A stretch of 64,000 nucleotides of DNA from the IMG/VR virus record IMGVR_UViG_3300021594_000641, positions 125,676 to 189,675 of that record, one strand, 5' to 3'. How positions within the stretch are numbered: the stretch's first letter is position 1; each line of letters starts with the position of its first letter. Source of the DNA: a virus. The position numbers were made by a program, and so were the translations under genes. This document shows, piece after piece, positions 52,056 to 54,608 of the stretch. The notes below the pieces were generated by a model. It was not told where the DNA came from and made no database searches. It was given only the letters and a program-made list of their open reading frames with translations.

Positions 52056-53635
52056 TTTTTTCTCTTTGGAAAAGTCTGCTCCCAGCCTTGTTCGTCGTAA
52101 GTCTTCTTCCTTTCAAAACTTCTTTTCTTGAACCCTGGGTCAAAACTGTCCAAACAGTCTATGACTATACCATGTTCTTTTCCAGAAGCGTCATGCCTAC
52201 GAACGACACGGCCCGGTGCTTGTATATCCATAATCTCACTAGCCCTGGCGTCTGCGCGAATTAAAACTGAAAGCATCGGAAAGTCTACGCCTGTAGACCA
52301 TACATCCGTGGCTATTACTTTTTTAAGAGTTCCAGCTTCAAAATCTTTTGACATTTTGTCTCGGATAGCTGGAGTCATCGCGGGCTCATTTACAGTATCC
52401 AGCATTCCCTTGTTCACGCACTTTTCGTAATCAGAAGGGTCTATGCTGTCATAACAAAGTTTAAATTCAGGAAGCTCCTGTTTTAAATGAATAGCGTGGT
52501 CTAAAGTTCTTACCAATATAAGTATTTGATCGTCGTCGCTGAACTGTCTGGCTTTAGCTGCAATCATAGAGTTCCTGGTTTTATTGCGCCAAATACCCCA
52601 CCTTTCTTTTACAACTTCTTTCATTCCTTCACACGGATTCTGCATCGATATGTCTAGCCACTCGACCTTGACCGGAAGAACTAAACCATTAGAAACAGCT
52701 TCCTGATAAGACATCTTGAAAATGTGAGGTCCAAACAAACCTTCAAGCACAAAATGCGCGTTATCAAACCTGCCTTCTGGAGTCGCTGTAAAACCGTACA
52801 TCCTGGCATGTTGGTACTTAGACAGTTCATCCTTATAACTAGGAGCTGCCGCTTCGTGAACTTCGTCATACAAAACTATGTCGGCACAATTAGAAACCCT
52901 GTGGTCTACCAAGTGCAGGCTATCCGCCGTTATTACTGTGACCCTTCCCCATTCTTTTTTGCCGGCTCCAACTTGCCCAACGTTTGGAACAAATTTAACC
53001 AGATGCCTAAGAAGCCTTTTCATTACGTCCTTGCGTCTAGTGACAATGTGTATTCTTGCGTTGTAGAACAAAAGACAAATAGCGGCAAACAAAAACGATT
53101 TACCAAAACCTGTAGGGGCTACGATTATACCGCAGTCGTTTGATACTATCGAAGCGAGGCACTCATCTTGTTTGGCTTTTAACTCCATTCGTTCAAAGAT
53201 TCTCTCAAATGAATAAGCAAATCTTTCAGGGTTAAGGCCGTTGTTTACAAAATTGCGCACCTCAACTTCAAAACCAAATTTCTCACAAATACCTTTTATC
53301 TTCTTAAGAAACCCACGCATAAAAACCAGATTTCCAGTTTGACCGTATTTGTACAGAGATCTTTCTTCGTAAACAAAAGGTTGATAAGATCCTCCCTTGT
53401 ACGCGGCAACTCCTCTGTTTTGAACAACGTGAGTATATGTCAAACTTCTTTCAAGCTCTGCTTTTAGATTTTCAGTAAAATCTCCTTGAATATCGGCCAG
53501 GTTTCCTTGACTACGAATCAGAAAACTTCCAGACATGACATGACTTCCTTTCATGGCAAGGACTGAACTTACCATCTTATTGAAACCATTGGAGGTGGGT
53601 AAGAGCTTACTTGAAAAATTTTCTGTAAGCTTCAA
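52052..53635 (-). CDS. Superfamily 2 helicase (UvsW-like)
   Basis: APTGFGKS, DEVH, GFTATP, ATDVWSTGVDFP, QAPGRVVR. Confidence 0.92.
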   Translation of the reverse strand: MKLTENFSSKLLPTSNGFNKMVSSVLAMKGSHVMSGSFLIRSQGNLADIQGDFTENLKAELERSLTYTHVVQNRGVAAYKGGSYQPFVYEERSLYKYGQTGNLVFMRGFLKKIKGICEKFGFEVEVRNFVNNGLNPERFAYSFERIFERMELKAKQDECLASIVSNDCGIIVAPTGFGKSFLFAAICLLFYNARIHIVTRRKDVMKRLLRHLVKFVPNVGQVGAGKKEWGRVTVITADSLHLVDHRVSNCADIVLYDEVHEAAAPSYKDELSKYQHARMYGFTATPEGRFDNAHFVLEGLFGPHIFKMSYQEAVSNGLVLPVKVEWLDISMQNPCEGMKEVVKERWGIWRNKTRNSMIAAKARQFSDDDQILILVRTLDHAIHLKQELPEFKLCYDSIDPSDYEKCVNKGMLDTVNEPAMTPAIRDKMSKDFEAGTLKKVIATDVWSTGVDFPMLSVLIRADARASEIMDIQAPGRVVRRHDASGKEHGIVIDCLDSFDPGFKKRSFERKKTYDEQGWEQTFPKRKK

Positions 53636-54608
53636 GTTGCTCTTTAGACTTAAAGAACAACTCAGGAACGAAAACGCTTTCTTTCCAAGGCGTTGGGTCA
53701 GGATACATGTACATAAGCCACTTTCTATAAACGAATTCTAAAAATTTTCTGCTGGCAAATTTTTCAGCCATGTCTTCAGAATGTCCTGTTCCGTCTTTGC
53801 CGGCTTTAGCGACTATCTCTGAGTCCATAGCTGCCCAATAAGCTTGAGCTATAAAGTTTTCTGGACTCTTATCTTCAGTGTCAAAATAGTTTTTCCAACA
53901 AGCTATAACTATTTTTCTTTTTGAAGCTTTTGAAAATATGGAGTTTGGAGCGTCTAAAACCCCATCGTCTTTTTTGCTGGAATTAAAATCCAAACCAAAA
54001 TACTTATACAAATCTGTGAGACCGTCTGGGTGAGCCGGAGAAAAGAACCATCTAGGGTCAATGATTAGACCAGCCAACAAAGCGCAAGATTGATGATCTA
54101 TACCAGGCACGAATGACGCTATCTCGTGCAAAGGGTGTCGGCTGTACAACAACTTAACTTTTTCAGAAACTTTTGACAAATCCTCTGAAGTCATCATGTT
54201 AGTAAGAGTGTAAATATAAAACTCATCCTGTGAAACTTCGTGGAAACCTCCGGCAGAAGCGGCGTACTGCCATCTACGCATGTTCAATAAAACGTTTTCA
54301 GGAGAGTAGTTAGGCAAGTTGATGTATTCAACTTTTGGACTGCACACCTGCAATTTGCCTAGCTTTTTTACTCTTTTACGTATGTACAAGTTGTAAATCA
54401 ATTCTGAATTTTTATGGTCTCCGCAAGTCATTACGGTGTCGCAGGACTTTAAAAGCTTGCTTGTGTTGCAAAATTCAGAAGCTTTACGGTCTGAACACTC
54501 AGGCATACCTTTCTTGTTTATATACCAGACTGTTCCTTGATAATCTGTGTAGAGTTTGAGCGCTGTAGTTTCTTCCACCTTGTCGCTCATGGTGTTCTCC
54601 AGGCTCAA
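53607..54608 (-). CDS. IS110-transposase/Nop-domain (Tas-like) protein, apparently degenerate
   Basis: SFVPGIDHQSCALLAGLIIDPRWF...LYKYFGL, SKASKRK and AEKFASRKFLEFVYRKW follow the order of IS110 C-terminal motifs; no recognisable DEDD residues in the N-terminal part. Confidence 0.6.
   Translation of the reverse strand: MSLENTMSDKVEETTALKLYTDYQGTVWYINKKGMPECSDRKASEFCNTSKLLKSCDTVMTCGDHKNSELIYNLYIRKRVKKLGKLQVCSPKVEYINLPNYSPENVLLNMRRWQYAASAGGFHEVSQDEFYIYTLTNMMTSEDLSKVSEKVKLLYSRHPLHEIASFVPGIDHQSCALLAGLIIDPRWFFSPAHPDGLTDLYKYFGLDFNSSKKDDGVLDAPNSIFSKASKRKIVIACWKNYFDTEDKSPENFIAQAYWAAMDSEIVAKAGKDGTGHSEDMAEKFASRKFLEFVYRKWLMYMYPDPTPWKESVFVPELFFKSKEQLEAYRKFFK

Follow-up and report, generated by a model that had tools for sequence, protein, structure and literature searches.

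A Tas-like protein, predicted to be catalytically dead, in the replication and recombination module of uncultured phages

Why should a phage keep, in the middle of its replication genes, a protein built like those of the RNA-guided TIGR (tandem interspaced guide RNA)-Tas systems defined by Faure et al. 2025 (PMC12045711), and keep it with no guide array beside it? The question is raised by the last 64 kb (positions 125,676 to 189,675; 64,000 nucleotides (nt), hereafter the window) of the 189,675-bp IMG/VR virus record IMGVR_UViG_3300021594_000641 (genome G000). This genome is 91% complete according to CheckV and, in a crude open reading frame (ORF) call, has a coding density of about 96%, with its genes packed on one strand. 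A reading of the sequence alone had taken one gene of the window, here named TasL, for a domesticated IS110/Nop (Tas-like) protein embedded in the replication operon. The follow-up described here indicates that TasL is, with high probability, a dead homologue of Tas that has become fixed in a replication/recombination module. The gene and its parts are as follows (coordinates are those of the window unless G000 is named).

53607..54590, (-) strand: Tas-like gene (TasL), 327 amino acids (aa), from the ORF list and its translation
54608, (-) strand: alternative TTG start of TasL, giving 333 aa
54255..54566, (-) strand: N-terminal RNase H/RuvC-like domain, predicted to be catalytically dead, residues ~9-112
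53613..54233, (-) strand: C-terminal helical Nop-type domain, residues ~120-326
53979..54176, (-) strand: conserved core, residues 139-204, with H152-P153, F160, D178-P179-R180-W181 and G199-L200

Of the two starts, the ATG at 54590 is to be preferred, since it has a GGAG 7 nt upstream, gives an N-terminus like those of the relatives (MS..(D/E)ET..LKL) and is the commonest public gene call. The resulting protein (P0002, 327 aa, identical to TasL) is present on 29 public contigs.

TasL belongs to a sizeable family that escapes ordinary searches. P0002 has no match in Pfam, PHROGs or the PDB sequences, even at E 10, and a word-indexed homologue search with it returns only itself, so that the family had to be found by exhaustive search. 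Among 1.84 billion cluster representatives, this search gave at least 559 homologues with E values up to 1e-3, of them 298 with E no higher than 1e-10, counted as clusters at 50% identity. Nearly all members are 300-340 aa long and align from end to end. Those that carry a name are all called 'hypothetical protein', and a precomputed Pfam domain is found in none. Profiles of the full length (alignment A1) and of the C-terminal domain (A5) gave only noise against PDB sequences, as did a Pfam search with single-domain sequences. In A1, which comprises 120 members and is the basis for the column statistics and for the AlphaFold2 input, P179 and R180 are invariant and about twenty further positions nearly so; the conserved columns are W22, G57, N61, P85, G114, G115, H152, P153, D178, P179, R180, G199, W232 and W291.

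The relationship of the family becomes visible at the level of the fold. The AlphaFold2 model built from A1 has a mean predicted local distance difference test (pLDDT) score of 92.2 and a predicted template modelling (pTM) score of 0.91; a model from the single sequence was unusable (pLDDT 35). Residues ~9-112 are modelled as an RNase H-like domain of the order b-b-b-a-b-a-b, in agreement with the RuvC-like layout that the sequence-only reading had recognised by eye in the N-terminal half, and residues ~120-326 are helical. The check by structural similarity that had been proposed there came out in its favour: the nine top PDB entries in a fold search of the model are all TIGR-Tas or IS110 proteins. 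A fold search of BFVD gave no entry below E 0.05. As modelled, TasL has the C-terminal Nop-domain fold by which Tas proteins are recognised, and the RuvC-plus-Nop architecture shared with Tas and IS110 proteins is thus supported at the level of a prediction. The motifs that had first been quoted for this gene are all present in the translation (LKLYTD, LQVCSPKV, SFVPGIDHQSCALLAGLIIDPRWF, LYKYFGL, SKASKRK and GK...A.KFASRKFLEFVYRKW) and fall mostly on conserved columns of the family.

Is TasL then derived from IS110, or is it closer to Tas? With a limit of E 1, the NCBIfam model NF052498 (TIGR_Tas_endo) picks up 80 of the 120 members; the best E is 3.7e-10. P0002 itself scores 16.2 bits (E 0.0077), its residues 139-204 aligning with profile positions 54-112, and nowhere else in TasL can sequence similarity to the curated TIGR-Tas model be detected. 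The curated cut-off of 100 bits is not reached by P0002, and members inspected individually score 16-23 bits, with matches confined to profile positions ~41-128; such scores below the cut-off therefore point to distant homology and not to equivalence with Tas. The IS110 models fare worse: PF02371 matches two of the 120 members (E 0.077) and NF033542 also two (E 0.055). P0002 itself matches neither PF02371 nor NF033542, even at E 10, PF01548 was not among the families matched, and PF02371 has no match anywhere in G000. In the ESM Atlas, the closest clusters consist of viral hypothetical proteins, and 10-31% of their members carry PF02371. Because the Tas model recognises so many more members than the IS110 models do, and given the ESM Atlas neighbours, the family is, to judge from its sequences, remotely homologous to Tas proteins and more akin to them than to IS110. 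Of the label originally given to the gene, the RuvC-plus-Nop fold stands, and an IS110 derivation does not, since 'Tas-like' fits better on the NF052498 evidence.

The catalytic residues of both relatives are poorly kept. Of the 120 members, 55% have Asp at the aspartate position that ends strand b1; Ser stands there in the three nearest relatives of the window protein. The alignment shows no conserved acidic residue after either b4 or b5, and 83% of members have Arg in strand b4. After G199-L200, where IS110 proteins have their catalytic Ser, no Ser is conserved, and residues 201-223 are variable and gapped. The lack of a DEDD set and of an ESG catalytic loop after GL, both noted at the outset for the one protein, thus extends to the family. 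Judging by these columns, neither RuvC nuclease activity nor serine recombinase activity is expected of TasL.

The second part of the answer comes from the gene neighbourhood. The genes around TasL in the window are the following.

54605..56737, (-) strand: SbcC/Rad50-like ATPase (Pfam AAA_23, SMC_N and SbcC_Walker_B; PHROG 77), directly upstream of TasL
56734..57912, (-) strand: probable SbcD/Mre11-like phosphoesterase, a weak call (Metallophos_2, E 0.023) at a conserved position upstream of SbcC
52052..53635, (-) strand: superfamily 2 (SF2; ResIII/Helicase_C) DNA helicase (Pfam and PHROG 16), directly downstream of TasL
45485..52055, (-) strand: orf228, DnaB-like helicase, primase and PolA with uracil-DNA-glycosylase-like and 3'-5' exonuclease domains (Pfam and PHROG)

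TasL fits tightly between its neighbours. The TGA of SbcC lies at 54605-54607 and is followed, after 14 nt, by the ATG of TasL; on the other side, the helicase overlaps TasL by 29 nt if it starts at TTG 53635, or leaves a gap of 31 nt if it starts at ATG 53575. The original observation that the gene has no non-coding flanks is therefore correct. To see how far this arrangement extends, IMG/VR was scanned with a sub-alignment of the family, which gave 65 loci, the longest contig measuring 226 kb, and gene order was read by tblastn with the window proteins. All 65 have the order (HldE)-SbcD-like-SbcC-TasL-SF2 helicase-(orf228)-DnaB-like-primase-PolA on one strand. An independent scan anchored on the helicase found a TasL ORF directly upstream in 79 of 80 loci, the one exception ending at a contig edge. 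Together, these scans amount to about 140 related viral contigs in which TasL has a conserved place in the replication operon, so that both the operon setting and the synteny with sbcCD and the helicase, which had been suggested as a check, hold well beyond the window.

The distance from the SbcC stop to the first residue of the family profile is an overlap or at most 30 nt in 66 of 68 distinct loci (median -10.5 nt), and from this start-stop spacing TasL is predicted to be translationally coupled to SbcC. Pairwise distances of TasL and of the helicase are strongly correlated (r 0.934, Mantel p 0.001, 57 loci), with TasL being the faster-evolving of the two (mean distance 0.63 versus 0.49). 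The fixed order in related loci and the co-divergence with the helicase argue that TasL is a vertically inherited core gene and not a mobile element. The clade that carries it is a large and diverse group of uncultured phages with genomes of about 150-225 kb. That the clade is uncultured follows from two comparisons: tblastn against 50,697 GenBank phages gave no homologue, whether P0002 or a consensus-like member was the query, and PolA is only ~25% identical to T5-like polymerases.

The junction between TasL and the helicase is less uniform than that with SbcC. Most members of the clade have a further conserved ORF, ~165 aa long and starting MQE..(L/I)RFN..CLG..., wedged between the two genes (for example, 4439-4933 in locus L101 and 4476-4985 in L093). 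Pfam gives no match for it, G000 contains no homologue, and the subclade of the window itself lacks it. The apparent non-coding gap of ~400 nt that follows TasL in many relatives turned out to be this ORF. Five relatives (L015, L034, L039, L044 and L064) have inserts of 1.5-3.6 kb with extra ORFs at the same place; the junction thus tolerates insertions. No fused forms of TasL were found, which is weak evidence. T5 D11, which T5-like phages encode between SbcD and the D10 helicase, was examined as a possible counterpart and is not homologous (hhalign probability 0.14).

If TasL is a Tas homologue, is there a guide RNA for it? In the window, Tandem Repeats Finder (TRF) and a periodicity scan found solely coding, collagen-like repeats, and Rfam gave no match; the absence of a guide array from the window, already remarked upon, was confirmed. 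In the whole of G000, TRF and a scan of periods 24-89 (at least 52% self-identity over four units) gave coding repeats (collagen-like fibres and Pro/Ala-rich tracts) and one non-coding array outside the window. The flanks of the 65 loci (8 kb on each side, 1.02 Mb in all), scanned at a threshold of 55%, gave five weak signals, none of them array-like. In two near-complete relatives, G001 (191,966 bp) and G004 (190,371 bp), all signals have periods divisible by 3, except for one weak 29-nt signal; the single signal with a 36-nt period, the only one checked, was coding. The array of about 36-nt period that was to be sought across the full genome was therefore not found in G000, G001 or G004, and nor was a conserved non-coding RNA, although such scans could miss irregular stem-loop units with variable stems.

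A guide might also be encoded within the gene itself, and TasL does contain two stable hairpins, one of which is placed as follows.

53634..53663, (-) strand: 13-bp hairpin (11 Watson-Crick and 2 G-U pairs, 4-nt loop) inside TasL codons ~310-319

In a fold of 53571-53700 (-), this hairpin has a z-score of -2.8, with one of 200 shuffles being equally stable; the second (z -3.0) lies in the codons of a protein loop modelled with low confidence. The idea of an intragenic guide was abandoned, as neither hairpin (z about -3) is conserved in relatives. The first hairpin is lineage-specific and spans the candidate TTG start of the helicase and an AAAGAG upstream of it, such that translation of the helicase could depend on ribosomes finishing TasL. 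Taken together, the scans, Rfam and the hairpins provide no evidence for a cis-encoded or array-type guide. It is well supported that TasL has lost an adjacent TIGR array or never had one; irregular stem-loop units or a single trans-encoded RNA may be the source of a guide.

A CRISPR-like mini-array occurs outside the window, next to a tRNA-Met gene (G000 13586-13800; locus L067 380-599). It consists of four palindromic repeats of 28-34 nt with the core CCACGCACGCGTGGGTGAGAC at an exact spacing of 62 nt; on the opposite strand the repeat ends in ...CGTGGATAAGGG, which is reminiscent of type I-E repeats. It is absent in five relatives, does not occur as an array in 185,579 reference genomes and has no Rfam match, and its spacers match nothing in phage records. 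No link between it and TasL is drawn.

What, then, might TasL do? We favour the reading that it is a non-cleaving nucleic-acid-binding subunit which assists SbcCD and the SF2 helicase in acting on certain DNA sites or structures, and we would put its chances at about even. A subunit that binds RNA is preferred because the characterised Nop-domain proteins (Nop5/56/58, Prp31, IS110 and Tas) each act via a bound RNA (PMC12045711), and because the Nop core is the best conserved part of the family. That TasL binds RNA at all is an evenly balanced proposition; that this RNA would then act as a base-pairing guide is more doubtful. In the favoured reading, the basic Nop core (D178-P-R-W, G199-L, R224, R249, R278 and R288) would hold a small structured RNA or an RNA-DNA hybrid, and the dead RuvC domain, together with the shortened linker helices, would provide a surface that contacts DNA or docks a partner. 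Parallels for such a surface exist in Nop5, whose dead RuvC-like domain recruits fibrillarin (PMC12045711; PMC11213020), and in dead-RuvC TasR, which still binds DNA. In the course of recombination-dependent replication, TasL could thereby mark or hold certain places on the DNA, for instance R-loops, branches or ends, so that the SbcCD nuclease and the SF2 helicase can act there.

It is tempting to go one step further and to regard TasL as an RNA-guided targeting subunit of the viral replication/recombination machine. A guide from another part of the genome, or one made from phage transcripts, would then steer the SbcCD nuclease and the SF2 helicase, or R-loop formation at the origin, to specific DNA sites. 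We consider this rather unlikely.

Several results weigh against the favoured reading. Firstly, a physical link of TasL with SbcCD or with the helicase is deduced from gene order alone. Secondly, apart from the non-coding array already mentioned, there is no periodic array in G000, in the two relatives of ~190 kb or in the flanks of the 65 loci, and no non-coding space adjoins TasL. Thirdly, the 3' end of TasL has no excess structure in 64 related loci (mean z -0.06), and the regions equivalent to the hairpin of the variable loop are unstable in relatives. Finally, in TaTasR two helices of ~30 residues form a coiled coil that dimerises and supports the guide-target duplex (PMC12045711), whereas the modelled segment of TasL at this position (residues 112-160) has helices of only 15, 9 and 6 residues.

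Since the array is missing, the coiled-coil region is modelled as short and the gene is coupled to SbcC, an adaptor that works independently of a guide is nearly as likely. TasL would then be an exapted Tas scaffold that works without RNA, either by sensing DNA ends, hairpins or branches or simply as a bridge between SbcCD and the helicase. The regions scanned revealed neither an array nor a conserved non-coding RNA, the linker helices of the model are short at the site of TasR's long coiled coil, the coupling to SbcC is strict, and the ~165-aa ORF between TasL and the helicase in most of the clade suggests a multi-protein unit. However, each characterised Nop-domain protein uses bound RNA (PMC12045711), and what the family has conserved best is a Nop core that still matches the Tas model. 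We give this explanation somewhat lower odds than the favoured reading.

A third view would have TasL as an RNA-guided transcriptional repressor of phage or host genes, with guides that are distant or lie within coding sequence. There is precedent in PateTasR, CsTasR and TasA: a 2026 preprint describes dead-RuvC TasR and TasA as RNA-guided repressors and reports tigRNAs embedded within coding sequence (Xu et al., bioRxiv 10.64898/2026.09.09.750476). The stable hairpin (z -3.0) in the codons of the low-confidence loop of TasL could be of this kind, but it is not conserved in relatives, and the scans revealed no array of the stem-loop or dual-repeat type. Such a role would also leave unexplained the invariant place of TasL in the replication/recombination block, where it is coupled to SbcC and stands away from regulators. 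We regard a repressor as improbable.

Still less can be said for an active nuclease or junction resolvase with a non-canonical site, for example one made up of the conserved H117, D/E123, H152 and D178. A RuvC-like fold in a recombination module would suit such an enzyme, the window has no obvious resolvase, and several His and Asp residues are near-invariant. However, the canonical positions are not conserved, and the Arg found in b4 of 83% of members resembles the Arg that fills the dead RuvC pocket of PateTasR, as described in the preprint (bioRxiv 10.64898/2026.09.09.750476). The invariant polar residues, moreover, are placed by the model in the helical domain, outside the RNase H fold. 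Activity of this sort is very unlikely. A decaying or recently inserted IS110-type mobile element is refuted by synteny and co-divergence: across ~140 contigs the gene keeps its length and place, and it diverges in step with the helicase (r 0.93). Further points against it are the lack of DEDD, catalytic Ser and non-coding ends, and a protein nearer to Tas than to IS110.

Some other features of the genome deserve mention. The family A DNA polymerase (45485-48679, (-) strand) has an N-terminal uracil-DNA-glycosylase-like domain and is followed by a dCTP deaminase-like gene (44964-45485, (-) strand). On the other side of the module, a sulfotransferase-like ORF (58123-58749, (+) strand) adjoins a bifunctional heptose kinase/adenylyltransferase (HldE-like) gene (58724-60214, (-) strand); the latter is kept upstream of the module in many relatives, and both are likely to be auxiliary sugar-modification genes. 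The segment 11111-11258, just upstream of a giant collagen-repeat fibre gene, was left uncalled in the crude ORF pass and is 90% identical to G001, where it has two copies; it probably encodes a conserved N-terminal portion of the fibre proteins. Outside the window, G000 12157-13560 contains four tRNA genes (Arg-TCT, Thr-TGT, Ile-TAT and Met-CAT). At G000 2317-2440 there is a non-coding element of 124 nt, 87% identical in G001, with a tRNA-like fold and a long arm on the anticodon side; it is called by neither ARAGORN nor Rfam.

So far, TIGR-Tas proteins have been known as stand-alone RNA-guided nucleases or repressors encoded beside guide arrays. TasL keeps the fold without the array or the nuclease residues, and its context supplies candidate partners: SbcC, SbcD, the SF2 helicase and, in most members, the ~165-aa neighbour. 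If TasL binds RNA, RNA guidance would be linked to phage DNA replication or recombination; if it does not, an RNA-guided scaffold would have been exapted to a role involving protein or DNA only. Should it prove to be an RNA-guided subunit, phage replisomes or recombination machineries would have their first RNA-programmed component, and the function of the 'arrayless' branch of Tas, to which we return below, would be answered.

How does TasL compare with known systems? The IS110 recombinases (IS621, 8WT6/8WT9; ISCro4, 9T56) are the more remote relatives, with structural and sequence similarity to TasL weaker than that of Tas; TasL lacks their DEDD residues, catalytic Ser, non-coding ends and bridge RNA, and is not mobile. 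TasR itself (TaTasR, PDB 9MTY) has a TIGR array, the acidic residues of RuvC and a coiled coil, whereas TasL has neither the array nor the conserved acidic residues, and its model shows short helices in place of the coiled coil. TasR is encoded at a stand-alone locus with its array, whereas TasL is fixed in a replication/recombination operon. PateTasR and CsTasR share with TasL an inactive RuvC domain, and the Arg of strand b4 recalls the pocket Arg of PateTasR; unlike TasL, they have arrays and coiled coils and come from candidate phyla radiation (CPR) bacteria.

The closest fit is with a group mentioned in the same preprint, which refers to 'one long phylogenetic branch' without arrays, with compact TasR in dense viral genomes, and leaves open whether it is truly arrayless or has another source of guides (bioRxiv 10.64898/2026.09.09.750476). 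TasL agrees with this description in its length (327 aa), its RuvC-plus-Nop architecture, the lack of an array and a coding density of ~96%; the TasL family is probably this arrayless compact branch, the match being one of description only. The accessible text gives the branch neither a function nor a replication-module context (10.64898/2026.09.09.750476), and a full-text literature search gave no paper with both TasR and SbcC. The context of TasL therefore provides this unexplained branch with a concrete biological setting.

Finally, Nop5, Nop56 and Nop58 of the box C/D small nucleolar (or nucleolar-like) ribonucleoproteins (sno(s)RNPs) differ from TasL in acting in cellular RNA methylation, with a long coiled coil, L7Ae and fibrillarin, and no sequence similarity to TasL was detected. 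Partners of this kind were not seen in the present analysis, in which no search was aimed at them. They nevertheless have in common with it a Nop domain that follows a dead RuvC-like domain. In these proteins the dead domain docks a partner enzyme, which provides a working analogy for an adaptor role of TasL.

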